Positions 24,901-60,439 of a stretch of 64,000 nt of DNA are shown one piece after another. Within the stretch, counting starts at the first letter, position 1. Each line of letters opens with the position of its first letter. Source of the DNA: a virus; the IMG/VR virus record IMGVR_UViG_3300025769_000006. One strand, 5' to 3'. A program made the position numbers and the translations under genes. A model generated the notes under the pieces. It was given only the letters and a program-made list of their open reading frames with translations. It was not told the DNA's origin and ran no database searches.

Positions 24901-24914
24901 ATTAGTATTACATG
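24901..24914 (-). promoter_or_regulatory. late-type box CATGTAATACTAAT
   Basis: Located in the intergenic region upstream of 24845. Confidence 0.25.
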
Positions 24915-25670
24915 TTATTTAAGTTTTTTCTCTATAGACTTAAATATTTCTACTCCTTCATCTGTTTTGAAAAAAGCAGCCATTGCAGAGTAAGGATTTT
25001 CATCAAAAGGAACATTCATTAGTTTCTTTCCATTAGAAGCCCAGGTAAAATATCTTTGATCTTGAGATAGGTCTATTATATTTGCTTCTACAGCTTTAAC
25101 AGCAAAGTTTCTTAATTGAACGTTTTCATCGTTAACTAATTCAATAAATAAATCTGGATTTGATCTAGCAAATATTAATAAATCTCTTTTAAGTTCTTTA
25201 GAACTCATCTTTGTAACTTTAGATCCTATTTCAACTCTCATTATAGCTTCTGCCATATCAATGTCAATATTTCTAGCTGCATTGAGAGCATCAACTTGAA
25301 GATTTAATAAATCTAATTCATCAACAGCAACTTCAACAGGATCAAATTCAAAAAAACTTTTACCTTTTAAAGGGTGATAAAGTGAAAGAAGCTTTTGTAA
25401 ATTTTGTTTTTCTTTTGGCACCATTAAAACACCGTCTTTAAAAATAATATGACCTAAAGTAGCTTCACCTTTTTGTTCGTCTACGAAACAAGAGTCTTGA
25501 TTTGTAGCGTATCTAATCTCTCTTTGTTTTCCGCTTTCTTGATCAAAGTACAGTAAAGCGTGTTTTTTTGTGTGTTTAGAAGGTATTGTATAAGTTAATG
25601 GTTCCATTCCATTTTTTAATATATATCTTCTATCTTTTATTTCCCAATTTTTTTTATTTTCTTTTTTCAT
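24915..25670 (-). CDS. structural protein (251 aa)
   Basis: ORF track entry. It has the same 17-nt leader as the scaffold gene. Confidence 0.4.
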   Translation of the reverse strand: MKKENKKNWEIKDRRYILKNGMEPLTYTIPSKHTKKHALLYFDQESGKQREIRYATNQDSCFVDEQKGEATLGHIIFKDGVLMVPKEKQNLQKLLSLYHPLKGKSFFEFDPVEVAVDELDLLNLQVDALNAARNIDIDMAEAIMRVEIGSKVTKMSSKELKRDLLIFARSNPDLFIELVNDENVQLRNFAVKAVEANIIDLSQDQRYFTWASNGKKLMNVPFDENPYSAMAAFFKTDEGVEIFKSIEKKLK

Positions 25671-35545: not shown

Positions 35546-35558
35546 ATATAATTACATG
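35546..35558 (-). promoter_or_regulatory. late-type box CATGTAATTATAT
   Basis: Lies 25 nt upstream of ATG 35520. Confidence 0.3.
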
Positions 35559-35570
35559 TTTTATAATTAT

Positions 35571-37097
35571 TTACGCAAAAGAACCAAAATCATCAGATTC
35601 AAAAAGTTTATTCATTTTTAACTCATCAAATCTAGTTTTTCCAGGATTTTTTTTATTATTAGAGGCAACTGTGTTTAAAGCATCTATTAAACTATCTTGA
35701 TCAAACGTTCTATAAAACTCAGTTTGCTCTAAGTTATTTTCTTTTATTCTTTTTTCTAGCTTTTCTTTGTCAAACTGCTCTCCAGGTTCCATATTCAAAG
35801 CTCTTCTAAATTGATGAAAATTATTGTAAAGCTCTCCATATTGGGTAAAATAATCTTTTAGTTGTGTTGTTGGACCTGCTTTTAATCTTAGTTTAGATCT
35901 TAAATAAGGGTCCATAGCGTGATCTCTACCTGACTTATGTAATATTTCATGCTCACCAACATTAACACCACTTAGTAATGCTCTATTGTATTCATCTTCA
36001 CCTCCGTAATTATCGTAAGAAAGATCTCTACCTACGCCTGGTATAAGCTGTTCATTTATTATAATATCACCAGTAGAAGAAATTGAACCACCTCCACCAA
36101 ATCCACTTCTAGGGTTTAAAAGGTTTCTTAAATCACTATTTAAAACATCAGATTTAGCTTGACCGTAGTTACCCGTAGACATTACCTTTGGTTGTATTCC
36201 TAAATTGCTAACCATTCTATTTATAGATATATCCATGTCCATTTCACTAGCTAATTCACCTGCTTTTTCTACATTTTCGCCAAACATTTGAGAGTTTAAA
36301 TCGTCACCATATCTAACATTTTTTCTGTTAAAATCAACAGGTAATGAACCTAGTTTTTGAGCTTGCTGTGGATATCTTTCTCTAGTTACTGGGTGATTAG
36401 CCCAATCTAAAGCTTGTTGCGCAGATTGTATTAAATATTGATTAGCAGGATCTTCCATGTCTAAACCACTATTTTCTAATTTATTTTGAAAATATTTTTC
36501 TTTTTCCTCTTGGCTCATTCCGTATAAAGATAATTCAATGTTTGGATCTTCGACATTAAATCTTTGATCCGTATAACCAATAGCGTATTCCATATCTGGA
36601 GACCAACTTTGATCTTGTAAATTAGAAAGTTCATAACCAGTACTTACATATGGATTTCTTGGTTTACTTCTGTCAGAAACATAATCTTTATCTTTAGTTT
36701 CATCTTTTTTAAGACCATAGTAAGCTTGGGTAGGTGTTAAACCAAATTGACCACTAAACGCATAAGATTCTAATTCTTCATTACTAGCATTTGGGTTTTT
36801 CTTTTTTAACTCATCTAGTATGTAGTTTCTATAATCTTCAGTCATTCTCTGCCTTTCGCTGTATCTTTTTTTTGCTTCTTCAGCTTCTGGCTTTAAACTT
36901 AATTTTTTACCTTCAACATCCCTTAAATCTTCTTTTAGAATAAACTTAGGCTTATTAACTCTAGTATTATCTACTTGAACGTTTGGTCTTCTTTTGTCTG
37001 TTGGATTGATTGGGTGTTGAGTACCATCATGAAACTTTATAGGGCTGTTGTTTACACCACCTTTTAAATTCTTAAAATAACCTTTTTTTAATCCCAT
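35571..37097 (-). CDS. SPIK-box protein with HExxH motif (508 aa)
   Basis: NNSPIKF lies near the N-terminus. HEILH is encoded at 35937-35951. Confidence 0.45.
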   Translation of the reverse strand: MGLKKGYFKNLKGGVNNSPIKFHDGTQHPINPTDKRRPNVQVDNTRVNKPKFILKEDLRDVEGKKLSLKPEAEEAKKRYSERQRMTEDYRNYILDELKKKNPNASNEELESYAFSGQFGLTPTQAYYGLKKDETKDKDYVSDRSKPRNPYVSTGYELSNLQDQSWSPDMEYAIGYTDQRFNVEDPNIELSLYGMSQEEKEKYFQNKLENSGLDMEDPANQYLIQSAQQALDWANHPVTRERYPQQAQKLGSLPVDFNRKNVRYGDDLNSQMFGENVEKAGELASEMDMDISINRMVSNLGIQPKVMSTGNYGQAKSDVLNSDLRNLLNPRSGFGGGGSISSTGDIIINEQLIPGVGRDLSYDNYGGEDEYNRALLSGVNVGEHEILHKSGRDHAMDPYLRSKLRLKAGPTTQLKDYFTQYGELYNNFHQFRRALNMEPGEQFDKEKLEKRIKENNLEQTEFYRTFDQDSLIDALNTVASNNKKNPGKTRFDELKMNKLFESDDFGSFA

Positions 37098-43743: not shown

Positions 43744-43756
43744 ATATTATTACTTG
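43744..43756 (-). promoter_or_regulatory. late-type box CAAGTAATAATAT
   Basis: Located in the intergenic region upstream of 43687. Confidence 0.3.
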
Positions 43757-43769
43757 TTTTTAGTAATTT

Positions 43770-44315
43770 TTACTTATCTGGGTTGAATCTATATGTTGCG
43801 TCTCCTATTGCTATTTCTAGTTGATTGGTTTTCCCGTTAAATGTTATAGACTTTATGTTATCTAAATGACTGTTTCCATTAGTACCGTTTTTTCCGTCAG
43901 CTCCTGCTGGCCCTTGTGGCCCTGTGGCACCTGTTGCACCTGTTGCACCTGTTGCACCAGTATCTCCTTTTGGTCCTTGAGGTCCAGTGCTACCCGTATC
44001 TCCTTTTTCACCTTTAGAAGCAGCGCTTGAAGAGTCTTTACCAAAAGCGTCTTTTACAAACGCATGCAACTCTTCTAGATCTTGCCTCATGTTTTCTATT
44101 TCTTTTAAAAGATATATTGATTTAGAATAATTATCGTGATCATTTAAAAGTTCTGTTATATCTGACACTGCTGATATTTCTGAGGCTACTTCAGATGGAA
44201 CAACAATTTCTCCATTAGAATCTTTATAAGCTCTAGCAGTATCTCCGCTTTTATAAAGTTTTTTAGTTCTTATATTATCGTTTATATTAGCCATATTACG
44301 TAATATTATATTCAA
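43770..44315 (-). CDS. collagen-like (G-X-Y) repeat protein, tail-fibre component
   Basis: [46 protein letters not shown] is encoded at ~43874-44011. Confidence 0.65.
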
Positions 44316-50637: not shown

Positions 50638-50660
50638 TGTAGTTTGTTTTCGTATATTAT

Positions 50661-50673
50661 ATATACTTACATG
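50661..50673 (-). promoter_or_regulatory. late-type box CATGTAAGTATAT
   Basis: Lies 23 nt upstream of ATG 50637 and is a member of the CAWGTAAT family. Confidence 0.3.
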
Positions 50674-50702
50674 GTTTTTAGTGTTTTTACCTGTAAATTG
50701 AC

Positions 50703-50745
50703 TGACAATAGGTACTTACTTATATACTTAGGTACCCTTATGTCA
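50703..50745. promoter_or_regulatory. nested hairpin with conserved 15-nt loop TTACTTATATACTTA
   Basis: TGACA..GGTAC-loop-GTACC..TGTCA, in the divergent control region. Confidence 0.5.
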
Positions 50746-50793
50746 CATAAAATAAAAAAATGTCACAAATAGAGGGCTATGGTGTTACTACTA

Positions 50794-50818
50794 GTTTTTC
50801 AAAAAGTTTTTCGAAAAG
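50794..50818. repeat. tandem palindromic 12-mers GTTTTTCAAAAA / GTTTTTCGAAAA
   Basis: Read directly from the sequence in the divergent intergenic region. Confidence 0.6.
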
Positions 50819-50966
50819 CAAAATCGTTTCATTTTACCGGGTCCGCCCAATTTCTAGGGTTTTAGGTTTAACGTTTCAAGCCATTGTTTGATTTTCCACC
50901 AGCTTTTTAGCTTTTTTTTCAGCACCTACTCACGGACTTGCGAGTGATTTACATTATAGAACCACT

Positions 50967-51000
50967 CACGGAGTTACTCGTGTGCTTAACAGATAATATA
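50967..51000 (+). promoter_or_regulatory. class-E promoter CACGGA-N18-AGATAATATA
   Basis: CACGGAGTTACTCGTGTGCTTAACAGATAATATA, ending 39 nt before ATG 51040. An extra CACGGACTTG half-site lies at 50931-50940. Confidence 0.6.
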
Positions 51001-51039
51001 TTCGAAGTTTAAAACTAATATTAATTAAATTAAATTCCT

Positions 51040-51279
51040 ATGTCAAAAGTAAATCAAATTACTACAAAAAGATTTGTAATCAGAAAATCCTTAATTGGTA
51101 CAAACACAGTGATTACATTCACTAACAAGAACAAAGAAGTATGTAAGTACAATCATGACTTAGTCTACAATCAACTAAAAGAAAAGTTCGACGCTATGCC
51201 ATGCTTCAACAAGTACAACAGTTATACAAACTCTAACAATCTACCAAAGTTTGTAAGAGACCTTGAGAAAATAGTATAA
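51040..51279 (+). CDS. early protein, paralog family A (79 aa)
   Basis: ORF track entry; highly similar to 51782..52021. Confidence 0.7.
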   Translation: MSKVNQITTKRFVIRKSLIGTNTVITFTNKNKEVCKYNHDLVYNQLKEKFDAMPCFNKYNSYTNSNNLPKFVRDLEKIV

Positions 51280-51339
51280 CACTAATGACCTAAGCAAGTC
51301 ACTAAACTGCTTTATTTTTTAATTGTTTTATTATCTACT

Positions 51340-51373
51340 CACGGACTTGCTAGCGTATAATTTGGATAATATA
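51340..51373 (+). promoter_or_regulatory. class-E promoter (GGATAATATA variant)
   Basis: CACGGACTTGCTAGCGTATAATTTGGATAATATA. Confidence 0.5.
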
Positions 51374-51404
51374 ACCAAATAATAATAATTTAAAATTTAA
51401 AACT

Positions 51405-51575
51405 ATGTTTATAATAAACAAAAACCAAATTAAATTAACAACTAATTTATTAACAAACAAACACATCAACATCCAATTTTTAAACAACAAATTAATAATT
51501 AAATCAAATCCATCAAACACAAACATCCAAAAATTACTCGACCGCAATTACATTACTTATAAATTAACTAAATAA
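51405..51575 (+). CDS. small N/K/I-rich ORF (56 aa), not in ORF track; possibly a decayed paralog
   Basis: ATG 51405 to TAA 51573-51575. Preceded by a class-E motif. Confidence 0.3.
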   Translation: MFIINKNQIKLTTNLLTNKHINIQFLNNKLIIKSNPSNTNIQKLLDRNYITYKLTK

Positions 51576-51711
51576 AACTAAACCCCCAAATCTACTTTAA
51601 CCTACTAATACATACTAAGCATAACAAGCCTGATTTTGAAATAGGATCGGAAGAGTAGACTCCGTCCTACACCATACTTATGTATTCTTTTTTTGCTGCA
51701 TGCCGCACTCG

Positions 51712-51745
51712 CACGGACTTGCGCGTTAAGTTGTCAGATAATATA
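51712..51745 (+). promoter_or_regulatory. class-E promoter
   Basis: CACGGACTTGCGCGTTAAGTTGTCAGATAATATA. Confidence 0.6.
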
Positions 51746-51781
51746 ACTGTAAGCAACGAAGCTTATATTAAACTTTATACT

Positions 51782-52021
51782 ATGCAAAAAGCACAAAAAC
51801 TCACAACAAAGCGATTTGTTATTCGCAAGTCATTAATTGGTAAAAATGTAGTAATTACTTTTACTAACAAAAACAAGGAAAAATGCACTTATAATCATGA
51901 CCTTGTTTACGAGCAACTCAAAGAGCGATTTGAAGCTATGCCTTGCTTCGCTAAATATAGCTCTTATACTAATTCTAATAACTTACCTAAATTTGTAAGA
52001 GACTTAGATAAAATAGTCTAA
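51782..52021 (+). CDS. early protein, paralog family A (79 aa)
   Basis: In-frame ATG 51782 of ORF 51680..52021, which lies downstream of the promoter. MQKAQKLTTKRFVIRKSLIGKNVVITFTNKNKE.. parallels 51040..51279. Confidence 0.7.
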   Translation: MQKAQKLTTKRFVIRKSLIGKNVVITFTNKNKEKCTYNHDLVYEQLKERFEAMPCFAKYSSYTNSNNLPKFVRDLDKIV

Positions 52022-52027
52022 TACTTC

Positions 52028-52085
52028 ATACTGACATTAGCTAGTTACTTATATACTTAATTAGCTTTTGTCAGTATTTTTTTAA
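52028..52085 (+). terminator. rho-independent terminator with the conserved 15-nt loop
   Basis: ATACTGACA..AGCTA-gTTACTTATATACTTAat-TAGCT..TGTCAGTAT followed by TTTTTTT. Confidence 0.65.
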
Positions 52086-52101
52086 CCGATGCAAATTCTC
52101 G

Positions 52102-52135
52102 CACGGACTTGTGTCAAAAAACTACAGATAATATA
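52102..52135 (+). promoter_or_regulatory. class-E promoter
   Basis: CACGGACTTGTGTCAAAAAACTACAGATAATATA. Confidence 0.6.
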
Positions 52136-52228
52136 TCCGAGATTATTATTATACTGTACTCATATAGATACAGTGCATTATACCTCAGCACTATTTTTAT
52201 TTACTAAACAAAGTAACACCTTTAAACT

Positions 52229-52357
52229 ATGCAAAGAATAGAGATTATAGCGGCAATAGACGAGTTAAACCAATACTTAAATGGTAATGTATTTACTAGT
52301 AGTATAGTAGAGACATTAGAAAACTTAGCAGAAAAACTTAAAAATCAAACTATATGA
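52229..52357 (+). CDS. microprotein (42 aa), not in ORF track
   Basis: MQRIEIIAAIDELNQYLNGNVFTSSIVETLENLAEKLKNQTI, with an ATGA overlap onto the next gene. Confidence 0.4.
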   Translation: MQRIEIIAAIDELNQYLNGNVFTSSIVETLENLAEKLKNQTI

Positions 52358-52605
52358 GTAAAATGACTATGAAGGATCTATGCGAGTATTCTTCAAAACA
52401 AAGAAAACTTCGTGCCGCGGAGCATAGACGCGAGCACCACCACGACGGTTTATGCAGTGGACTTACTCAGTCGGAGTATAATAGAATGACTGTAAGACAA
52501 AAGACTAGTTTCTCAAAAGCTAGAAAGTTCACTCATAACCGTATGTGGAAAAGCACACACACTAAATTTGACTTAAAACAACTAAAACTAATAAGTAAAT
52601 CTTAA
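52354..52605 (+). CDS. basic hypothetical protein
   Basis: ORF track entry. Confidence 0.5.
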   Translation: MSKMTMKDLCEYSSKQRKLRAAEHRREHHHDGLCSGLTQSEYNRMTVRQKTSFSKARKFTHNRMWKSTHTKFDLKQLKLISKS

Positions 52606-52607
52606 TT

Positions 52608-52778
52608 ATGAAAAGAAAATTTATTCACTATGTAATTGCTAGACTTACAGATATTGCTATAAAAGCATTTATAGTATCGCTAGCGACAATAGCTATAGGA
52701 GGTATAGCGTTCTTTATCTTCATGATGATAACAGGACAAGTAGATTATGGTAACACCTCGTTTGGAATCTACGGATAA
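52608..52778 (+). CDS. small TM protein (56 aa), not in ORF track
   Basis: MKRKFIHYVIARLTDIAIKAFIVSLATIAIGGIAFFIFMMITGQVDYGNTSFGIYG. Confidence 0.45.
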   Translation: MKRKFIHYVIARLTDIAIKAFIVSLATIAIGGIAFFIFMMITGQVDYGNTSFGIYG

Positions 52779-52781
52779 CTA

Positions 52782-52815
52782 CACTGACTTATATATATAC
52801 AGTGCAGATAATATA
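52782..52815 (+). promoter_or_regulatory. class-E promoter (CACTGA variant)
   Basis: CACTGACTTATATATATACAGTGCAGATAATATA, with the same 24-nt register. Confidence 0.5.
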
Positions 52816-52845
52816 TTAAAATGTTCAACTAAATAATAAATAACT

Positions 52846-53103
52846 ATGCAAGTAAAAACTATTAAATTCTTAAACAAGTCAACTATTCTACTTAACAAAG
52901 TAAAATACAAAGGTTATCCTGTTGGCGAGCTACCTAAAAAGTTTGCTTTTATCTACAACGAAGAAGAAGACAAAGAAGGTATTAAAGAATGGTTCAACTA
53001 CAAAGGTTTAACCTATGTACAAGTAAAAGAGTCTATTTGGAGTCAAATAGCAAAAGACAACGAGCAAATGAATATAGAAATGCTATTTAAAACTATGAAT
53101 TAA
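52846..53103 (+). CDS. hypothetical protein
   Basis: ORF track entry. Confidence 0.5.
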   Translation: MQVKTIKFLNKSTILLNKVKYKGYPVGELPKKFAFIYNEEEDKEGIKEWFNYKGLTYVQVKESIWSQIAKDNEQMNIEMLFKTMN

Positions 53104-53104
53104 T

Positions 53105-53251
53105 ATGAGTATAACTAAAATCTTAGATACACTAGCACAAGAGTGGTACGGCGAGTTTGGCTTTGCCACTTGCAGCTTACAAGAACAAGACGCAATAGTA
53201 AAATATGCTTATGAGCAAAGCGTTCACAGAATAAATAATACTAATAAATAA
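53105..53251 (+). CDS. microprotein (48 aa), not in ORF track
   Basis: MSITKILDTLAQEWYGEFGFATCSLQEQDAIVKYAYEQSVHRINNTNK. Confidence 0.35.
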   Translation: MSITKILDTLAQEWYGEFGFATCSLQEQDAIVKYAYEQSVHRINNTNK

Positions 53252-53258
53252 TATAACT

Positions 53259-53690
53259 ATGACAAACTATCAAAAAGAGCAATTTCTGCTTGAAGAACAG
53301 TTCGTAAAGCGTTTGCTTATCGACTACGGAATCAGAGAAGTAACAACACAGAGGCAGGCTAAAAATGAAACTCGTGAGTTTGAGTTTCCTGTACCTGCAT
53401 ATACTAAACAAAGACTTAAGTGGCATGCTAAACGAAGCGACATAAAAGATTTACCAAGACTACGCATCGCTTGTTTCAAATCAGGTTATGTACGCAAGCA
53501 AAACGGTGCAGACAGAGCGTATCAACTAAATCCTGTTTACGAGCAAAATTATAGATGCGTATGGCAAAGAGACAACGGTGAACTATATGTTTCATCAGGT
53601 GTAAATAAAGCTCGCGCGCTTATATATTCTCCAATAACTAGACTAAACTTTATGCTACAATATTATCTTAGAAACTATGCAAACAATTAA
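53259..53690 (+). CDS. hypothetical protein (143 aa)
   Basis: ORF track entry. Confidence 0.5.
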   Translation: MTNYQKEQFLLEEQFVKRLLIDYGIREVTTQRQAKNETREFEFPVPAYTKQRLKWHAKRSDIKDLPRLRIACFKSGYVRKQNGADRAYQLNPVYEQNYRCVWQRDNGELYVSSGVNKARALIYSPITRLNFMLQYYLRNYANN

Positions 53691-53700
53691 AACTAAAAAT

Positions 53701-53835
53701 ATGAGAACACTTAAATTAACAGAAAACGATTGCACGTTTGTACACTATGTACTACGCATGTATGCTCAACAAACACCTGGATTAGATCAAGAAGACAAAG
53801 AAGAAATATACGAAGTTGCAGCTAAATTTAAATAA
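53701..53835 (+). CDS. microprotein (44 aa), not in ORF track
   Basis: MRTLKLTENDCTFVHYVLRMYAQQTPGLDQEDKEEIYEVAAKFK. Confidence 0.35.
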   Translation: MRTLKLTENDCTFVHYVLRMYAQQTPGLDQEDKEEIYEVAAKFK

Positions 53836-53836
53836 T

Positions 53837-53989
53837 ATGAGTAAAGAAAAATATAGAATAATATACAGAAACACTTATTACGGTGATGAAGAGATAGATA
53901 CAGCAGAAACTAAAGTAGAAGCTATTTGTTTAACTGGTGAATACAGAAAAGCTTTTCGCTCAGGTAATGTATACTTTAAAAGAATATGA
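53837..53989 (+). CDS. microprotein (50 aa), not in ORF track
   Basis: MSKEKYRIIYRNTYYGDEEIDTAETKVEAICLTGEYRKAFRSGNVYFKRI, with an ATGA overlap onto the next gene. Confidence 0.35.
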   Translation: MSKEKYRIIYRNTYYGDEEIDTAETKVEAICLTGEYRKAFRSGNVYFKRI

Positions 53990-54210
53990 CTATTAATATA
54001 GAATATAACGACCACAATTACGAAGTTTACTTTGATGTAATACTTGGGTCTCACGGTGATTATTTTAATCCACCTGAACCACCTGAAATACATATACACT
54101 CTGTTGTAGATGAAGATGGTAATGAAGTTCAAGATTATAGCGTAATAAACTATGCTGACGAAGAAATATATTATAAGTTAAGTGATGGCTATTTTGACTA
54201 CACGGACTAA
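53986..54210 (+). CDS. acidic hypothetical protein
   Basis: ORF track entry. Its C-terminal codons (..DYTD) form the upstream box of the next promoter. Confidence 0.5.
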   Translation: MTINIEYNDHNYEVYFDVILGSHGDYFNPPEPPEIHIHSVVDEDGNEVQDYSVINYADEEIYYKLSDGYFDYTD

Positions 54211-54234
54211 ATATAAATCACTACAGATAATATA
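54201..54234 (+). promoter_or_regulatory. class-E promoter
   Basis: CACGGACTAAATATAAATCACTACAGATAATATA. Confidence 0.6.
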
Positions 54235-54257
54235 TGTGAATAACAAAAAAACAAACT

Positions 54258-54452
54258 ATGTATTGTAAATGTAAACCAAATACTAAAATACCCGAAGCTC
54301 GAGTAGCTTTAGGTTATAAGACATGTGTTGATTGTTCTACTGCTGAGCAATATAGTTATGTACCAATAATCAACCATAAAACTGGCAATACTATTCAAAT
54401 AGTAAGTCAATCACTCTCCGCCGCGGTGCATAGGTCGTGGCGGCGTAAATAG
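54258..54452 (+). CDS. C4 zinc-finger protein, DksA/TraR-like
   Basis: CKC..(17 aa incl. IPEARVALGYKT)..CVDC is a spacing and context reminiscent of phage TraR. Confidence 0.45.
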   Translation: MYCKCKPNTKIPEARVALGYKTCVDCSTAEQYSYVPIINHKTGNTIQIVSQSLSAAVHRSWRRK

Positions 54453-54584
54453 ATAATCTAGAAGCTTAAGACATAGCTAGATATCTACAGCTAGACGAGT
54501 AGCTTAATTAGGTGTGTATGTGGCGACGACTATCGACGGATATATGTGATCATACGGAAGTGTATTACACACACATAAGTGAAT

Positions 54585-54682
54585 AGCTAGCGGCAACTAG
54601 GTATGGATGCAACAGGAGTTATTAAATTAACCAGAGTTCATTACTACTGACGAGTATGAGGGTTCGATTCCCTCGCTAGTTA
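54585..54682 (+). tRNA. tRNA-like element 1 (98 nt; acceptor and T-arm canonical, remainder not foldable as a cloverleaf; anticodon unassigned)
   Basis: AGCTAGC 54585-91 pairs 7/7 (one G-T) with GCTAGTT 54675-81. The T-arm is GAGGG-TTCGATT-CCCTC at 54658-74, the discriminator is A, and no CCA is encoded. Confidence 0.35.
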
Positions 54683-54772
54683 CAAAGCAGCAGGCCGGTA
54701 TGCTGCTCCCTTACAGGAAACATGTGCTATAAAGCACCAAGCCTTTTAGGTTGAAAACAAGTAAGGGAATAT

Positions 54773-54879
54773 GGGCGTGAAATGGTTAGACTACAAAATA
54801 GGTGGGCGAATGCCGTAAAGATACCGCGAGGAGCGGTACCTAAATTGTAGTAACGCAGGTTCGATTCCTGCCACGTCCA
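54773..54879 (+). tRNA. tRNA-like element 2 (107 nt; tmRNA-TLD-like: acceptor + T-arm + long helix, no D-stem)
   Basis: GGGCGTG 54773-79 pairs 7/7 (one G-T) with CACGTCC 54872-78. The T-arm is GCAGG-TTCGATT-CCTGC at 54855-71. There is a 12-position helix 54791-802 / 54839-850 and two inner hairpins. Confidence 0.4.
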
Positions 54880-54899
54880 CTAATTTTAAATAAACAACT

Positions 54900-55061
54900 A
54901 TGAAATACCTTTATGAACAACTAGACGAATTGTTAAACACTATTAAGTATGCAGAAGCATCGGGAAATGAAGACGCAGATTACTTAAAAAACGATTACTT
55001 TATAGACGTTTTAGAAGCATGTAGAGAAATTGTAGAATACACATCAGAAGAAAAAGAATAA
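54900..55061 (+). CDS. microprotein (53 aa), not in ORF track
   Basis: MKYLYEQLDELLNTIKYAEASGNEDADYLKNDYFIDVLEACREIVEYTSEEKE. Confidence 0.4.
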   Translation: MKYLYEQLDELLNTIKYAEASGNEDADYLKNDYFIDVLEACREIVEYTSEEKE

Positions 55062-55064
55062 ATT

Positions 55065-55259
55065 ATGCCAAACATGAGTTACTGCCGGTTTGAAAACACG
55101 GTAATGGATATGAGAGATTGTATAAACGCTATAGAAGATGGCGAGTGCGATTCACTAAGCAGCTACGAAGTAAGAGCTCTTAAACAATTTAAGGAAATGG
55201 GCGAAGAAATTAGTCGCCTTGATATAGACATTGATTTAATACTTGAAAGATATGTATAG
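55065..55259 (+). CDS. hypothetical protein (MSYCRFENT family)
   Basis: ORF track entry. Confidence 0.5.
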   Translation: MPNMSYCRFENTVMDMRDCINAIEDGECDSLSSYEVRALKQFKEMGEEISRLDIDIDLILERYV

Positions 55260-55356
55260 CAACTGCTGCGGAGCTGAACCTAGTTATTTAAGCGATAGCT
55301 TATGTGGTCAATGTCTTGAACATGCAGACTTTGACGACTACACGGAGGAAATATAA
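55252..55356 (+). CDS. Cys-rich microprotein (34 aa), not in ORF track
   Basis: MYSNCCGAEPSYLSDSLCGQCLEHADFDDYTEEI. Its last codons form the upstream box of the next promoter. Confidence 0.35.
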   Translation: MYSNCCGAEPSYLSDSLCGQCLEHADFDDYTEEI

Positions 55357-55374
55357 ATACTAATAGATAATATA
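55341..55374 (+). promoter_or_regulatory. class-E promoter
   Basis: CACGGAGGAAATATAAATACTAATAGATAATATA. Confidence 0.6.
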
Positions 55375-55387
55375 ATAAATTAAAAAC

Positions 55388-55639
55388 ATGAAAAGACTAA
55401 CAGTTTATCAAAGACTAAAACCTGAAATCAAAGAAGCTTTGCATTCAGAAGGAAACAAAAAGTACCAAACGTCTGTAGATTATTTAGTTGAAAAGCTAAG
55501 TGAAGCTACATTTTACAGTGATCTATCTATTAGCACGATTAGTTCACTTTACACTTTTACACACTTAGAGCTCGTTAAAACATCTGTATGGGATTTTAAG
55601 TATGGCGAAAACATATTAATATCTAAAGATTATGAGTGA
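55388..55639 (+). CDS. hypothetical protein
   Basis: ORF track entry. Confidence 0.5.
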   Translation: MKRLTVYQRLKPEIKEALHSEGNKKYQTSVDYLVEKLSEATFYSDLSISTISSLYTFTHLELVKTSVWDFKYGENILISKDYE

Positions 55640-55868
55640 TACAATTAAAAAGCAAAATACCATGTGTATTTTTGTGCTAGACTTTTTAGATGGTAAAGCA
55701 TATAAATATGACATTAGCGCGTTATGTAATGACGGAAACTGGTCAAGTCCGGGTAATTGGAACCCCGACAGTGAAAGCTGTGAAGCTTTTCTGATCGGCG
55801 CAGGTCATAGTATAGGAAATATAGAATGGATGGTAACTAATAATAATGAAATAGAATATGGCAACTAA
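55632..55868 (+). CDS. hypothetical protein
   Basis: ORF track entry. Confidence 0.5.
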   Translation: MSDTIKKQNTMCIFVLDFLDGKAYKYDISALCNDGNWSSPGNWNPDSESCEAFLIGAGHSIGNIEWMVTNNNEIEYGN

Positions 55869-56313
55869 AATTTTAACACAAGAACTAATTAAACAAACCT
55901 TAGAAGACAAAGGTTATCCAATGACACACGATGAAGGCATGACTTACGAGTTTATGCTTAAAAAAGTATGCGAATACTACGATGCAGAGATCGGCGAAGA
56001 CTGGAATGATAATGCAGATTTCTTTATATATTCAGAAACAACAGCTGATGGTTATGAAGTATATATTGCTACAAATAATTCAAGTAGTCCTAGTATAAAC
56101 GAAGATGTTTACTACTATGACAGCGATCTACACGAAAGATTAGAAGACGCATTAATTGATGGCGCTAGAATTTATGTAGATTATTTGCAAGATAATTATG
56201 TACACGAAGCAGCTGAATCTGCTTATGACTATTTATACGAAAGACTAATTGAAGAAACAGAAAACGAATTAATAGACGAAGGTTATGAGTACGAAAATCA
56301 AGAAGAAGAATAA
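55858..56313 (+). CDS. strongly acidic protein (151 aa), DNA-mimic / anti-restriction candidate
   Basis: D/E/Y-rich throughout and ends ..DEGYEYENQEEE. Confidence 0.35.
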   Translation: MATKILTQELIKQTLEDKGYPMTHDEGMTYEFMLKKVCEYYDAEIGEDWNDNADFFIYSETTADGYEVYIATNNSSSPSINEDVYYYDSDLHERLEDALIDGARIYVDYLQDNYVHEAAESAYDYLYERLIEETENELIDEGYEYENQEEE

Positions 56314-56318
56314 TTATT

Positions 56319-56474
56319 ATGGATAAAATAGAAAAATACGTAAGAGATAAATACCCTAAAAAGTTTAAAAATAAACCGGTATTAGTTAAAGAAACAAGTG
56401 GTATATACTTTGTATCAACACACAAAGATGAATCGCCTATAATATTAAGTAAAAAAACACTGGATAAATTATGA
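56319..56474 (+). CDS. microprotein (51 aa), not in ORF track
   Basis: MDKIEKYVRDKYPKKFKNKPVLVKETSGIYFVSTHKDESPIILSKKTLDKL, with an ATGA overlap. Confidence 0.4.
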   Translation: MDKIEKYVRDKYPKKFKNKPVLVKETSGIYFVSTHKDESPIILSKKTLDKL

Positions 56475-56665
56475 AAGTTAAACAATTTATAGAAAACAAA
56501 AACAAAATGCTTGATCGAGGTATTGTAGCAACGCCTGGAGACAGAGATAGATTAGAGTTGTTTGCTAACGCGAACAATGGAAGCAACGACTTTTTATTAA
56601 TGCAAATGGCTATTAACTTTGGTTATAAGATGGCTTTAGAAGATGTAGAGGAGGTATTATTATGA
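56471..56665 (+). CDS. hypothetical protein
   Basis: ORF track entry. Confidence 0.5.
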   Translation: MKVKQFIENKNKMLDRGIVATPGDRDRLELFANANNGSNDFLLMQMAINFGYKMALEDVEEVLL

Positions 56666-56931
56666 AAATAAAAGTAAAACCAATGTATGGTAATTCCAAC
56701 AGATCAATTCCTAATCAGTATCAGATTATAACGCCTAAAGGTGTATATTTTCAAAGTTACAACAGTATAATAGCTTACAAGCCTTATTATGGTAAAATAG
56801 AATTAGATGAATATTATTGGGATTATTCAAGAACAACAGGTAAATATCGCAATATGTTTCTCAATGAATTCATAGATGAAACAAGAGAAAAAATTAAATC
56901 AGGTAAATATAAATTAACAAACTTAAACTAA
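56662..56931 (+). CDS. hypothetical protein
   Basis: ORF track entry. Confidence 0.5.
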   Translation: MKIKVKPMYGNSNRSIPNQYQIITPKGVYFQSYNSIIAYKPYYGKIELDEYYWDYSRTTGKYRNMFLNEFIDETREKIKSGKYKLTNLN

Positions 56932-57014
56932 GTGAAAAATAATATAGATAAAAGTCAAATATTTTCTATTTTATTTTTAATGCTCTTATGCTACTTATGT
57001 TTTATAGTTAAAAA

Positions 57015-57566
57015 ATGGTCAATGGGTTTATTATGACAGACAATAGCACACTAAACAAATTGTTTAAAGAACATATAGAAGATATAAACAAGTTTATATA
57101 TTCTAAAGTAAAAGATATACATTTAACTAAAGATCTATCTCAAGAAACTTTAATAAAACTTACAAAAGCTTTACGTAAAAAAAACTATGAAGATCAGGGT
57201 AAATTTAAATCTTTTGCATTATGTGTGGCTAATAATATTATAGTAGATTATTATAGAAAAAAGAAACGTAGACCTAAAATGAAAAGATCTGAAACTTATG
57301 ATATATTTTCTAAAATAAAATATGAAGAATTAAATAAAGAAGAATATATTATAAAAGAACAGATGTTAAAAGAAGTTAAACAACTGCTTAATAAAATACC
57401 TAAAAAACTTAGACAAGTATTAATATTAAGGTTTTATAGTAAAATGACTTTTAGGCAAATAGCTAAAGAAACAAACACAAAAATTAATACTGTTCAAGGT
57501 AGATTTAGATACGGAATGGATAGACTAAAACAATTACACGGACTTAACGAGTTATTAAATAGATAA
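57015..57566 (+). CDS. sigma-70 family RNA polymerase sigma factor, ECF-like (regions 2 and 4)
   Basis: Region 2: FKSFALCVANNIIVDYYRKKKR. Region 4: LPKKLRQVLILRFYSKMTFRQIAKETNTKINTVQGRFRYGMDRLKQL. Confidence 0.75.
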   Translation: MVNGFIMTDNSTLNKLFKEHIEDINKFIYSKVKDIHLTKDLSQETLIKLTKALRKKNYEDQGKFKSFALCVANNIIVDYYRKKKRRPKMKRSETYDIFSKIKYEELNKEEYIIKEQMLKEVKQLLNKIPKKLRQVLILRFYSKMTFRQIAKETNTKINTVQGRFRYGMDRLKQLHGLNELLNR

Positions 57567-57570
57567 TATA
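57537..57570 (+). promoter_or_regulatory. class-E promoter embedded in the 3' end of the sigma gene
   Basis: CACGGACTTAACGAGTTATTAAATAGATAATATA. The last A of the motif is the A of ATG 57570. Confidence 0.5.
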
Positions 57571-57851
57571 TGACAGAAGAACAAATGAATAGATTAGCTG
57601 ATATTATTGTAGATAAAATAATAGAGCGACAACAACAATATGACAAGGAATTTAAAGAAGAATTAAAAGAGTTAGCTCAACAAAATCCAGATCTAGAATT
57701 TGGAACAATAACTCAAAAAGAATTAATAGAAGAAGAATTAAATAATCTTTATCAAGATCTAAAAGAGTTAGAAGAAAAAGAAGATTATGCAGCAGCTTCA
57801 AGATTATTAATAATCATAGAAAAATATAAAAAGAAATACAACATTAAGTAA
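57570..57851 (+). CDS. acidic coiled-coil protein
   Basis: ORF track entry. Confidence 0.5.
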   Translation: MTEEQMNRLADIIVDKIIERQQQYDKEFKEELKELAQQNPDLEFGTITQKELIEEELNNLYQDLKELEEKEDYAAASRLLIIIEKYKKKYNIK

Positions 57852-57871
57852 TGTGTATAGCATAACCACAT

Positions 57872-58069
57872 ATGTATATGATTAGATTTATAAAATTCAC
57901 AATAGTCTGGATCAGTCAAAATCTTGCAATACCTTTTTGGGTTGTAGGTCATGTTCACTTATCAATATCAGACTATAAAGATATACACGAGATAATAGCT
58001 AGTATAGGTATGAATATAATAGTCTTTACTGGTTTTATTATAGATTTTAAACAACAAGATAAACTATGA
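57872..58069 (+). CDS. small membrane protein
   Basis: Two hydrophobic segments: FTIVWISQNLAIPFWVVG and MNIIVFTGFIIDF. Confidence 0.45.
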   Translation: MYMIRFIKFTIVWISQNLAIPFWVVGHVHLSISDYKDIHEIIASIGMNIIVFTGFIIDFKQQDKL

Positions 58070-58554
58070 ACATATTTTATTTACATAGAGACCCAGTTAA
58101 AGCTGCGCGAATACAATACAATAAGCACGTGGTTAAAATGATCTTAGAATCAGCCCAAATGCTTTGTACGGCGCATCATTGTTATGGGGATGCGGAACAA
58201 AAATATAACGTACCTTATAAGCAAGCACATTTAAACCACCCTTCAACAATATGGGCCAGAAGGTCAAGAACAACTTATATGTGGTTATATGACCATATGA
58301 TTGCGCTTGGTAAAGAGTATACAAAAAGATATGGTAAAGAACATCTTACGATTGCTAAGTGTAGAGATTTTTTGTCTACACCACCTAGACATATACAAGG
58401 TAATGAATGGACTGAACCACCACAGTGTATGCCAGATGAATACAAAGTTGAAGGTAATAGTGTTGAGGCATATTGGAATTATTATGAAGGCGAAAAACAT
58501 AGTGTAGCAAATACAAATGAACAAAAAATATATAGATCATGCTTAAACTTTTAA
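58066..58554 (+). CDS. conserved hypothetical protein (N-terminus FYLHRDP..HVVKMILESAQML)
   Basis: ORF track entry. I recognise the N-terminal pattern as recurrent in phages and large DNA viruses, but cannot name its function. Confidence 0.5.
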   Translation: MNIFYLHRDPVKAARIQYNKHVVKMILESAQMLCTAHHCYGDAEQKYNVPYKQAHLNHPSTIWARRSRTTYMWLYDHMIALGKEYTKRYGKEHLTIAKCRDFLSTPPRHIQGNEWTEPPQCMPDEYKVEGNSVEAYWNYYEGEKHSVANTNEQKIYRSCLNF

Positions 58555-58877
58555 CAACAATAGTAGTAACAGCTACAATATACCATGCTGATCCTGCTCA
58601 ATGTAATGCTGATTATCTTACAACAGCTTCTCTTAAAACTATAAACGAAAAAAATCCTCAAGGTCATAGATGGATAGCTGTTTCAAGAGATTTAGAAAAA
58701 CACGGTTTTGTTTTTGGAACAAAGGTTTGTGTTGAGAATGCAGGTAATTTTGATGGAGTATGGACTGTTGAAGATCGAATGAACAAAAGATGGAAAAACC
58801 GCATAGATTTTCTTGTGAACAAAGATGTAAAAGGCGGTAAATGGAATAAAGTTAAATTAACAATAATATATGAGTAG
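58539..58877 (+). CDS. 3D-domain (double-psi beta-barrel, MltA/RlpA-like) protein with N-terminal signal anchor
   Basis: TATIYHADP..TASL..IAVSRDL..GTKVCVENAGNFDGVWTVEDRMNKRWKNRIDFL fits the 3D-domain pattern. Confidence 0.55.
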   Translation: MLKLLTTIVVTATIYHADPAQCNADYLTTASLKTINEKNPQGHRWIAVSRDLEKHGFVFGTKVCVENAGNFDGVWTVEDRMNKRWKNRIDFLVNKDVKGGKWNKVKLTIIYE

Positions 58878-58995
58878 ATATAAAATATACAAGCATTTAA
58901 TGCTTACGGATGTTTTTGGTGTTAAAACCAAAATTAAAAATTTTGTAAAACCTAGGCAGACAAAAGCCTATAATAATAAGAAAGTAAGAGGCTAA
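58870..58995 (+). CDS. basic microprotein (41 aa), not in ORF track
   Basis: MSRYKIYKHLMLTDVFGVKTKIKNFVKPRQTKAYNNKKVRG, with a TAATG overlap onto the next gene. Confidence 0.3.
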   Translation: MSRYKIYKHLMLTDVFGVKTKIKNFVKPRQTKAYNNKKVRG

Positions 58996-59639
58996 TGTCA
59001 CGTGAAAGAAATATAAAATGGTTAAATGATAGGCATGTTATATACAGGAAAGATCCTGTTAACGATGCGCCAACTATAGAAACCAAGCATTATAAATACT
59101 ATGAAGATGGTACGCACGAGTGTTATCACTTGTTTAATAGCAAGGCTAAGATTACTACGTACAAATCTTTAAAGTGGCATTTTTATGTTTTGTATTTTCT
59201 TAACCAAGACAGACCTGAAGGTTTGCTGCCAACTAGTATTTACGAGTTTATAGCAGATAAAGAAAATGGCTTTGTAACATTTTTTATTAGTGATAAAAAG
59301 CTAAACGAAATGATTGAAGACGTGTTCAATGATGGCGGTGAACCACCTTTAAATAAGAAACGTAAGATAATATTTAAAGACTATAGCGGTTTATCTTTTG
59401 ATCAAAAAATGAGTATTGTAGGTAAATTAATTGGAAGATCAAAACGTGTAAATGAAGAAGCTATATATGAATGTATGCTAGATTTAATTTATTATGGTAA
59501 AAAAATAACTTGGAGTAAAGTTGCAGTTTTGTTAAACTGTTCAGAAAGAACTGTAATAAGAAATATTAATAACGAATTAAAAAAAGAAAAAGAAATATTA
59601 AATGAAGAAATACAACATACAGAATTATATAAGATATAA
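58995..59639 (+). CDS. putative DNA-binding protein (C-terminal HTH)
   Basis: WSKVAVLLNCSERTVIRNINNELKKEKE is HTH-like. Confidence 0.4.
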   Translation: MSRERNIKWLNDRHVIYRKDPVNDAPTIETKHYKYYEDGTHECYHLFNSKAKITTYKSLKWHFYVLYFLNQDRPEGLLPTSIYEFIADKENGFVTFFISDKKLNEMIEDVFNDGGEPPLNKKRKIIFKDYSGLSFDQKMSIVGKLIGRSKRVNEEAIYECMLDLIYYGKKITWSKVAVLLNCSERTVIRNINNELKKEKEILNEEIQHTELYKI

Positions 59640-60354
59640 GGAAGATATTAAATCTTCAATGCCACCTCAAAAATTTTACGATTACTACACGAGAGATGAA
59701 TTAGTTGTTAAATTTATACCTCTTGTTGAAGCCATGGCTAGAAAACAATCAACATCACAACAAGCTGTTGGTGTTTTAACAATAATGGATCTATTTCAAA
59801 TTGGCAGTTTAGCTTTAGTAAAGGCAGTTGATAAATTAGACTGGGAAAGATTAATTGATTCAGAAGATATTGAAAAAACATTAAAAAGCTTTTTTAGTAA
59901 AAGAATAAAAGGTGCTATTAGAAGAAAAATAGATTCATTAAGAGGTAATATAAGAATACCAGAACATAAAATTAATGAAATACGTAAAAACCCTAAAGAC
60001 AAAAAAATGGTTGCTATGTTTTTTAATTCTATGTTTTTAAGTATAGACGCACAGCCTGTTAACGACGAAGAAAATATGATAAATCAAATAGCAGACAAGT
60101 CAGAACCATATAACATACAAATACTTAACATGTATTTAAAGAGTTTAATGAAAAAACATTTAACAGGCATTGAGTATGAGGTTTTAAGATTGTCTTATGG
60201 ACTAGATTGTGAAAAACATTCTGCTAACTATATAGCAGGTAAATTAGGCATAAGAGGTGTTAGCGCATATGTGCGTGTTTCAGAATTAAAAAAACAAGCT
60301 GTACAAAAATTAATAGACAGCGTTGATCACTCGCAAGTGCTTGACTTTCTGTAA
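59602..60354 (+). CDS. sigma-70 family sigma factor-like protein
   Basis: Region-2-like FIPLVEAMARKQ..LFQIGSLALVKAVDKLD. Region 4: YEVLRLSYGLDCEKHSANYIAGKLGIRGVSAYVRVSELKKQAVQKL. An alternative start at 59659 would remove the 38-nt overlap. Confidence 0.65.
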   Translation: MKKYNIQNYIRYKEDIKSSMPPQKFYDYYTRDELVVKFIPLVEAMARKQSTSQQAVGVLTIMDLFQIGSLALVKAVDKLDWERLIDSEDIEKTLKSFFSKRIKGAIRRKIDSLRGNIRIPEHKINEIRKNPKDKKMVAMFFNSMFLSIDAQPVNDEENMINQIADKSEPYNIQILNMYLKSLMKKHLTGIEYEVLRLSYGLDCEKHSANYIAGKLGIRGVSAYVRVSELKKQAVQKLIDSVDHSQVLDFL

Positions 60355-60364
60355 GTTACGACTA

Positions 60365-60398
60365 CACGGAATTAAAACAAAACGTAAAAGATAATATA
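60365..60398 (+). promoter_or_regulatory. class-E promoter
   Basis: CACGGAATTAAAACAAAACGTAAAAGATAATATA, ending 41 nt before ATG 60440. Confidence 0.6.
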
Positions 60399-60439
60399 AA
60401 CATGTAATTATAATAATAAGCAATTTAAATAAAAAACGA

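Follow-up and report, generated by a model that had tools for sequence, protein, structure and literature searches.

The early region of the uncultured virus recorded as IMGVR_UViG_3300025769_000006 raises the question of which transcription machinery reads a two-box, promoter-like motif that is repeated along it. The window analysed here is the whole 64,000-nucleotide (nt) stretch of this record. The motif, named class 1, has the form CACGGA-N18-AGATAATATA. An earlier note made from the letters of the sequence had listed nine copies and proposed a dedicated phage promoter class, read by one of two sigma factors encoded in the window or by a polymerase encoded outside it. We consider it highly probable that the nine sites are promoters of a phage-specific class. 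Their reader is less certain: we tentatively favour host core RNA polymerase (RNAP) carrying a phage sigma factor of 250 amino acids (aa), together with some mechanism of ignition.

Both strands of the whole window were scanned for the class-1 pattern with up to two mismatches, and the chance expectation was taken from 100 shuffles of the window that preserve dinucleotide composition. The scan returned exactly the nine sites listed before, all on the plus strand between positions 50967 and 60398, and no further site on either strand; the shuffles predict 0.04 sites and gave one at most. The spacing is rigid, with 24 nt from the C of CACGGA to the A of AGATAATATA in all nine copies, and the sequence of the 18-nt spacer varies. 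Each copy lies in the sense direction just 5′ of the first gene of an early operon (9 of 9), with a start codon -1 to 93 nt past the last A of the box, which bears out the placement before start codons claimed earlier. The flank 5′ of the upstream box reads ..CT, CTCG, CTA or TTA, as had been described. The sites are as follows.

50967..51000, plus strand: P1, putative class-1 promoter, 39 nt 5′ of the gene of a 79-aa protein at 51040
51340..51373, plus strand: P2, putative class-1 promoter with the GGATAATATA variant, 31 nt 5′ of the gene at 51405
51712..51745, plus strand: P3, putative class-1 promoter, 36 nt 5′ of the ATG at 51782 (79-aa paralogue of the P1 gene)
52102..52135, plus strand: P4, putative class-1 promoter, 93 nt 5′ of the gene at 52229
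52782..52815, plus strand: P5, putative class-1 promoter with the CACTGA variant, 30 nt 5′ of the gene at 52846
54201..54234, plus strand: P6, putative class-1 promoter, its upstream box overlapping the end (..DYTD, then stop) of open reading frame (ORF) 53986-54210
55341..55374, plus strand: P7, putative class-1 promoter, its upstream box in the end (..DDYTEEI, then stop) of ORF 55243-55356, with an ATG 13 nt past the box
57537..57570, plus strand: P8, putative class-1 promoter, in the last codons (..KQLHGLNELLNR, then stop) of the gene of an extracytoplasmic function (ECF)-type sigma factor
60365..60398, plus strand: P9, putative class-1 promoter, after the 250-aa sigma gene, its downstream box inside the spacer of a second promoter-like motif (class 2, see below)
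50931..50940, plus strand: orphan upstream box CACGGACTTG, without a downstream box

The orphan box at 50931 was thus found again. The upstream boxes of P6, P7 and P8 are encoded within the last codons of the preceding ORFs, a feature already pointed out for the first two and extended here to P8. P8 heads the operon whose last genes are p206 and the 250-aa sigma gene; the ATG annotated at 57570 overlaps its box, and the in-frame ATG at 57585, five codons on, is the likelier start. A class-1 site at the position of P9 is found in one of 79 family loci, in this lineage only. Contigs with an identical primase-helicase bridge the ends of the window by only ~417 nt, inside thyA, and the genome is therefore a circle of ~64.4 kb of which the window is nearly the whole. 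The comparison of strands and ORFs consequently counts as genome-wide: neither the other strand nor long ORFs elsewhere contain the full pattern, and the outcome that the note had set as refuting did not occur.

Some further features accompany these sites. The 79-aa early proteins encoded at 51040-51279 and 51782-52021, behind P1 and P3 respectively, are paralogues (81% identical), and the exact protein from 51040-51279 occurs in 228 blocks of the public collection, TARA marine samples among them. Exact proteins of this phage are present in marine samples of TARA, ENA and the Joint Genome Institute. Two AAATAATATA boxes, at 53246-53255 and 56937-56946, stand just 5′ of the genes at 53259 and 57015 (the latter coding for the ECF sigma); the sequences 5′ of them (GTTCACAGAA and ATTAACAAAC) are like upstream boxes with the register off, and these boxes may be weak or degenerate class-1 promoters.

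Class 1 is not a peculiarity of this genome. The exact 34-nt pattern occurs in 43 IMG/VR stretches, mostly in contigs of 50-68 kb, often in 2-7 copies and on one strand. Its 87 distinct sites give the logo ..C(T/C)nCACGGACTTAc..T-rich..aGATAATATAtnyGAA, with C at position -2, T/C at -1, CACGGACTTA(c), a T-rich segment at 15-18 and G at position 38 in 75 of 87. A wider family of 80 loci was fetched by means of the 250-aa sigma alone (66-100% identity), and box counts refer to sigma loci with enough upstream DNA. The class-1 box is present in all 80, at 2.5-10 kb upstream of the sigma stop codon in every case. GATAATATA has 346 copies on the gene strand and 23 on the opposite one, and the full motif with at most three mismatches has 128 versus 6. 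The strand specificity, the position 5′ of operons and the conservation across a large phage family are all in keeping with the dedicated promoter class proposed earlier. Nothing relevant to the class-1 motif, to this sigma-bearing phage family or to sigma factors of phages of Flavobacteriia or of Crassvirales was found in the literature searched.

The two boxes behave differently in this family. In at least 80 related phages from metagenomes the downstream box reads nGATAATATA without variation. The form of the upstream box depends on the lineage: CACGGACTTA is found in the window and in loci L046, L063, L067 and L102, with a CAC(t/a)GAC variant in L056, and most loci have TTACAAAC(a/t)AAATACGA, so that TTACAAACwAAATACGA is read in most relatives. 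Minor types, TTCGAAT..TAATACGA or TTTGCAAAC, are restricted to few loci. Comparisons of primase, ERF and sigma show that the phages with CACGGA-type sites are not monophyletic, and the early block and its promoters are therefore mosaic relative to the replication block. A gene private to CACGGA-type phages was sought and rejected: the 93-aa gene at 57570 occurs in all five of these loci, yet 8 other loci have it as well.

A subgroup of CACGGA-type loci (L008, L011, L016-L018, L026, L027, L031, L035, L037, L040 and L041) has an extra conserved element directly upstream, found in either orientation (GCTATACAC or GTATAGCAC). In the same subgroup a palindrome begins 4 nt past the box and shows compensatory changes (AAGATTAATAATAATCTT, AAGTTTAATAATAAACTT, AAGGTTAACAGTAACCTT); it would be a 5′-terminal RNA hairpin or an operator. 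Hairpins past the class-1 box are not enriched overall (28 observed versus ~50 in shuffles). The closest GenBank relative by terminase, MW202828.1 (L044/L045, 43.8-50 kb), is without the sigma, class 1 and class 2 and carries at least 8 copies of the perfect palindrome GTGTCGTTAACGACAC 5′ of early genes, which looks like a different private early signal within the same broad phage group.

We infer promoter function from the geometry of the sites. The -10 hexamer would be GATAAT at positions 26-31, within the invariant nGATAATATA, and the -35-like hexamer CGGACT at positions 3-8, within CACGGACTTA, which gives a spacer of 17 nt. This CGGACT-N17-GATAAT arrangement is constant in the 9 window sites and the 87 family sites, with a variable spacer sequence, and corresponds to the geometry of sigma-70-type promoters. 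The -10 hexamer has the A at position 2 and the T at position 6 expected of that type, in an element with 346 sense copies in the family. Positions 3-8 read CAAAC(a/t) in the majority type, and A6 and C7 are common to all types of upstream box. Transcription would start at the purine 4 nt past the box (position 38, 7 nt past the T of GATAAT); this fits the conservation of a purine there and the 13 family sites in which an ATG begins at position 38. A second mode of ATG placement in the family is 13 nt past the box; leaders would therefore be absent or very short.

That the motif does not resemble Bacteroidota sigmaA promoters had been stated before. Two phages served here as a check: the crAss-like Cellulophaga phage phi14:2, with its experimentally mapped promoters, and Flavobacterium phage elemo. 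Host-RNAP promoters mapped in phi14:2 read TTG(AC)-N18-TAnnTTTG in its genome sequence, where TAnnTTTG occurs 52 times in sense versus 25 in antisense; the early block of elemo has 4 sense and no antisense TTG..TAnnTTTG sites. No such enrichment of TAnnTTTG is seen in the window (51 sense versus 45 antisense, no match in an intergenic gap) or in the family (623 versus 977). No conserved host-type promoter was found 5′ of the p206 and sigma genes or in the early block, in the window or the family, and E. coli-type -35/-10 sites are not enriched in the window (66 versus 69.7 expected). The class-1 box does not fit the -7 element TAnnTTTG, as its best registers match 2-3 of 6 positions (GATAATAT, TAATATAT). 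A TAtaTnyG register exists only in part and is missing from most TTACAAAC-type sites. The -33 TTG is found at positions 8-10 of P2-P4; most CACGGA-type sites have TTA instead, and the majority type lacks the element.

The factors available to read these sites depend on the gene content of the phage, a crAss-related podophage. Its minus-strand genes, between 5.5 and 50.6 kb, code for virion and packaging functions (terminase, portal, a GroEL-like protein, proteins of 1681 and 2453 aa and one with the C-terminal domain of the crassvirus muzzle protein), and their order is like that of phi14:2. The plus-strand block runs from 50.9 kb past the window end to 5.1 kb and contains ~30 small early genes followed by genes of replication and nucleotide metabolism (ERF, PD-(D/E)XK exonuclease, primase-helicase, ThyA, MazG, DUF1064, ribonucleotide reductase). 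The terminase is 63% identical to that of the uncultured podovirus MW202828 and ~45% to those of Flavobacterium elemo phages; its matches also include Cellulophaga phages. Of 70 genes only 6 are preceded by a Shine-Dalgarno-like motif, and the leaders are rich in A; this is the Bacteroidota pattern, and the host thus very probably lies in the Bacteroidota. As host clues the bacterial assemblies gave only contigs of metagenome-assembled genomes, with mixed labels, several of them Flavobacteriaceae or Bacteroidetes.

No RNAP gene was found among the ORFs screened of this essentially complete ~64.4-kb genome, and the large virion proteins have no DxDxD catalytic motif. It follows that host core RNAP must transcribe the phage. 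A polymerase outside the window, one of the readers first suggested, is not supported, as the circle lacks only the ~417 nt inside thyA. The 2453-aa protein (6062-13423, minus strand) sits where phi14:2 has its virion RNAP gene; it has no Pfam, PHROG or PDB match and no DFDxD/DxDxD except a C-terminal DLDED. A crAss-type virion RNAP was rejected as reader on these grounds and, with no RNAP gene among the screened ORFs, so were T7-like or virion RNAP promoters. N4-like hairpin promoters were also discarded, inverted repeats being present around CACGGA at few sites only and hairpins past the box not being enriched. A DNA polymerase did not turn up among the genes screened, nor among the Pfam hits listed for L140/L141. 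Rfam and transfer RNA scans gave no matches.

The divergent region of ~400 nt between the gene blocks (50638-51040) is almost invariant in close relatives and has no Rfam match and no convincing ORF. It holds a plus-strand direct repeat TGTCAC-N14-TGTCACAAATA (50741-50775) with the layout of class 2. The region may serve as an origin or a packaging site, encode a non-coding RNA or contain an ignition promoter. The 15-mer TTACTTATATACTTA occurs at 50716-50730 and 52045-52059, each time within a longer inverted repeat (GGTAC..GGTACC; ACTGACA..TGTCAGT, then a T run). Two copies alone are not above chance; the repeats look like terminators or protein-binding sites.

Three genes of the plus-strand block bear on the identity of the reader.

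59602..60354, plus strand: 250-aa sigma-70-family protein, FliA/group-3-like, with regions 2, 3.0 and 4; candidate reader of class 1
58995..59639, plus strand: p206, conserved family-wide, with a C-terminal helix-turn-helix (HTH); the gene overlaps the sigma start
57015..57566, plus strand: 183-aa ECF-type sigma with Pfam regions 2 and 4; accessory gene

The Pfam score of the 250-aa protein is weak, yet its identity as a sigma is clear: among solved structures it is closest to FliA (E = 7e-6), and many RpoD/SigA chains come next. Regions 2.2 (DLFQIGSLALVKAVDKLD), 2.4 (RIKGAI, identical in FliA), 3.0 (IRIPEHKINEI) and 4.2 (VRVSELKKQAVQKL) are recognizable. Its homologues in metagenomes number in the thousands, many of them named sigma-70 family by the Joint Genome Institute (JGI); the GenBank phage collection searched contains none. 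Hidden Markov models of both sigmas, run against all window ORFs, detected no hidden second sigma. The segment just 5′ of the p206 start (58950-58997, ..GTGACAAAAGCCCGTAAAGATAATAAAGTAAGAGGCTAATG) is strongly conserved, also in ~70 related loci; it overlaps the end of a 41-aa ORF and ends in a Shine-Dalgarno-like AAGAGG, which is rare in this genome.

A second motif, class 2, with the form (T/A/C)GTAAA-N14-(T/A)GTAAT(T/A)ATA, is found in five minus-strand intergenic gaps and in the gap between the sigma and ERF genes.

60384..60412, plus strand: class-2 candidate GTAAA-N14-TGTAATTATA, 5′ of ERF and replication genes, overlapped by P9
50662..50690, minus strand: class-2 candidate heading the minus-strand block
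43745..43773, minus strand: class-2 candidate 5′ of the operon of a 106-aa protein and GroEL
35547..35575, minus strand: class-2 candidate with an N13 spacer, 5′ of the operon leading to terminase and portal
24903..24916, minus strand: class-2 candidate with a weak upstream box, GAGAAA
17543..17571, minus strand: class-2 candidate 5′ of the operon of the muzzle-like and 2453-aa proteins

GTAATWATA lies within 160 nt past the sigma stop codon in 71 of 79 family loci. The logo of these sites is tGTAAA-N13-A(T/C)(A/G)TGTAATTATAwTAATA, with both boxes conserved. Class 2 is likely a middle/late promoter class.

In the reading that we tentatively favour, class-1 sites would be sigma-type promoters that start the early operons of the ~64.4-kb crAss-related phage. 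Host core RNAP with the family-wide FliA-like 250-aa sigma would read the invariant downstream box, and the phage sigma would give the phage a code of its own, orthogonal to the TTG/TAnnTTTG code of the host. The upstream box would be a lineage-specific module that moves together with the mosaic early-gene block; a further factor probably reads it. Ignition, the first expression of the sigma, would come from weak use of class-1 sites by host sigmaA or from a virion-delivered factor. The 250-aa protein is the only candidate reader found family-wide, and its assignment to class 1 is plausible.

Several observations support this assignment. Motif and sigma co-occur across the family, in all 80 of the loci fetched through the sigma, and the GATAATATA arrays and the class-2 motif are both absent from three sigma-less relatives, MW202828, elemo and phi14:2, the last two of which carry TTG..TAnnTTTG promoters. 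The sites have sigma-70-family geometry, and the GATAA core is like the -10 element of sigma28/SigD promoters, and RIKGAI is common to the phage sigma and FliA. Strict conservation over a box of 9 bp is usual for alternative and phage sigmas. Promoters of the sigma28/FliA-SigD class read TAAA-N15-GCCGATAA/T, and the core of their -10 elements (GCCGATAA/T) resembles (C)GATAAT. The likeness extends to the region 4.2 helix, similar in FliA and the phage sigma, and to the CAAA/TAAA of the majority upstream box at a comparable distance. The correspondence is incomplete. nGATAAT shares the GATAA core, but the preceding C is found in some lineages only and the GC further upstream is absent. The -35 TAAA ~15 nt 5′ of the 8-mer is likewise lacking, since the window has CGGA, and the majority type CAAA with 16 nt. 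The phage box is furthermore extended to 9 invariant bases (GATAATATA), and Bacteroidota hosts are without a flagellar regulon.

A number of points weigh against recognition of class 1 by the 250-aa sigma. Its gene is the last in the block driven by class-1 promoters and, with no host-type promoter at hand, the sigma would have to switch on its own synthesis. It does not explain CACGGA, because the upstream box varies and the region 4.2 helix (YVRVSELKKQAVQKL) is unchanged across the different types of upstream box; no column of region 4 discriminates the box types, and covariation of base 25 with the sigma gave only noise in variable columns. In lytic phages that have been studied, the phage sigma is known to act on middle/late promoters rather than early ones, as gp28 of SPO1 and gp55 of T4 do. 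The same holds for gp36 of phiEco32 and gp47 of 7-11 (PMC8948821). Class-1 sites are upstream of and around the sigma gene, and do not precede genes expressed after the sigma. Class 2 does fit that position: both its boxes are invariant, its first site lies directly past the sigma gene (71 of 79 loci), it precedes the virion operons, and its TAAA-N15-G layout resembles sigma28 promoters, so that class 2 could be the true target of the 250-aa sigma. Finally, a search of the GenBank phage collection for homologues of this sigma found no cultured family member.

A rival reading, rather unlikely in our judgement, is a classical cascade in which unmodified host sigmaA holoenzyme would act on class 1 at time zero and the 250-aa sigma would then redirect RNAP to class 2. 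Gene order speaks for it, with class 1 almost only 5′ of the sigma and class 2 right after it (71 of 79 loci) and before the late operons, as does the invariance shared by both class-2 boxes and the DNA-reading regions of the sigma. CACGGA-type sites also embed TT(A/G) at positions 8-10 and TAtaTnyG at 31-38 (TTr-N20-TAtaTnyG), with the 23-nt offset of the phi14:2 host promoters. The embedded element is missing, however, from the majority TTACAAAC-type sites, and GATAATATA, whatever the register, agrees with TAnnTTTG at only 2-3 of the 6 specified positions. In about 35 family sites the start codon is no more than 10 nt from the box, which is a misfit to a start 5-7 nt past position 38. Relatives that rely on host sigmaA carry consensus TTG/TAnnTTTG promoters, and the strict 9-bp invariance is again the mark of an alternative or phage sigma.

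The cascade has its precedent in phiEco32 and 7-11, in which early promoters are read by the host, the sigma gene is early/middle and early/middle genes diverge from late ones (PMC8948821). The promoter element of phiEco32 gp36 is tAATGTAtA and that of 7-11 gp47 is GTAAtg-N16-aCTA (PMC8948821). As in those phages, a phage sigma would here redirect host core RNAP to short, strictly conserved, AT-rich elements of non-host type; transcription would likewise start 6-9 nt past the element, the early/middle and late blocks diverge, and the sigma gene is in the early/middle block. The differences are that their sigma promoters precede middle/late genes and their early promoters are of the ordinary host sigma70 type, whereas class 1 precedes early genes, the sigma operon included, in a genome with no host-type promoter. 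Their sigmas are ECF-like or without region 4, unlike the FliA/group-3-like protein of the window, in which class 2 (GTAAA-N14-WGTAATWATA) is the closer positional analogue. Host-RNAP-dependent middle promoters of phi14:2 represent the Bacteroidota sigmaA type, with -33 TTG and -7 TAnnTTTG (bioRxiv 10.1101/2020.03.07.982082). Class 1 shares with them the host phylum, a related virion module, the bipartite form and the equal offset just described, but its invariant bases (CACGGAC, GATAA) lie outside the host consensus and TTTG is absent.

An unlikely alternative, still deserving consideration, is that host core RNAP is guided by another phage specificity factor, either present at time zero or unrecognisable by sequence. 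Examples would be a virion-delivered protein (compare the injected RNAP of crAss-like and N4-like phages) or p206 acting as a sigma-like or MotA-like factor; the lineage-specific upstream box is its predicted binding site. With no host-type promoter anywhere in the genome some factor has to act first. The crAss-like virion module (phi14:2 gene order, muzzle C-terminal domain, 2453-aa protein in the position of the virion RNAP) offers a route for its delivery, variation of the upstream box follows the mosaic early module rather than the sigma, and p206 is family-wide, HTH-bearing and encoded by a gene overlapping the sigma start. On the other side, no window ORF contains a second sigma-like domain, and the recognition helix of p206 does not covary consistently with box type. 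The predicted structure of p206 is of low confidence (predicted local distance difference test, pLDDT, 65), and Foldseek found no match to it in PDB below E = 0.1. The giant virion protein has neither a polymerase motif nor a Pfam, PHROG or PDB match. We know of no virion-delivered sigma.

Two known systems are instructive here. T4 middle promoters combine a MotA box at -30 with a host -10 element through sigma appropriation, and T4 early promoters have an extended consensus around the host elements. Class 1 is similarly a multi-copy class with conserved bases beyond the needs of the sigma and with an upstream box at a fixed distance from the -10, possibly read by a separate phage factor. T4 retains the host -10, however, while the -10-like box of class 1 is not host-like, and no MotA or AsiA homologue was detected in the phage. 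With N4 and the crAss-like phages that carry a virion RNAP the phage shares early genes without host-type promoters and a related crAss-like virion architecture. It differs in having no detectable virion RNAP and no conserved hairpin, and the bipartite -35/-10 geometry of class 1 points to a sigma-dependent multisubunit RNAP. Early transcripts of phi14:2 have no common motif (bioRxiv 10.1101/2020.03.07.982082).

A bolder proposal, which we find quite improbable, is that the family runs its whole programme, first genes included, on two private promoter codes and no host-type promoter. A promoter-specificity factor would then be needed in the cell at time zero, the likeliest being a virion-delivered one, sigma-like or other, which replaces the injected RNAP of crAss-like relatives. 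The upstream box (CACGGACTTA versus TTACAAAC and others) would form a second, modular layer swapped along with the early-gene cassette.

It is very improbable that the sites are not promoters but operators of a regulator, RNA-processing or termination signals, or replication or packaging repeats. The upstream box is operator-like and co-evolves with the early module, and palindromes follow some sites in one subgroup. Against this stand the rigid bipartite layout with a variable spacer, the AT-rich downstream box with A2 and T6, the strictly sense-strand position -1 to 93 nt 5′ of the first gene of each operon, the lack of other promoter candidates for these operons and the hairpin counts below those of shuffles (28 versus ~50).

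Recognition of CACGGA-type promoters by the ECF sigma (best solved relative SigW, E = 2e-11) is extremely unlikely: its homologues are found solely in CACGGA-type phages (window, L056, L063 and L067), but the ~90% identical phage L046/L036 has a clean 463-nt deletion of 57061-57523, which leaves 15 codons at the beginning of the gene and 14 at its end, and still carries P7, P8 and P9, L102 has CACGGA promoters without a homologue, the gene is split into two ORFs or frameshifted in L152, and the downstream box is identical in ~74 loci without it. Because L046/L036 lost the gene and retain the promoters, the ECF sigma is dispensable for class 1, and as a required reader it was ruled out.

Of the interpretation first offered, the dedicated promoter class therefore stands, the ECF sigma and the outside polymerase fall, and the other sigma is a plausible reader only. 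Promoter systems dependent on phage sigmas are already known as a kind. What is new in class 1 is that it heads early genes, that it is the only code besides a second private class and that its upstream box is modular. To our knowledge, transcription in Bacteroidota phages has been described only for a few crAss-like phages, which inject their own polymerase. The phage studied here represents a widespread, uncultured marine and freshwater crAss relative that apparently lacks both a polymerase and host-type promoters; what it carries is a conserved sigma, with two private promoter classes that are strictly conserved. If the favoured reading is true, genetic tools for Flavobacteriia and other Bacteroidota would gain a ready-made orthogonal sigma/promoter pair, and sense-strand arrays of nGATAATATA would mark the early regions of these phages, and their orientation, in metagenomes. 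The reading would also make modular promoter evolution testable, with an invariant -10 box and an exchangeable upstream box, and would give a concrete form to the question of how a lytic phage starts transcription without a host-type promoter.

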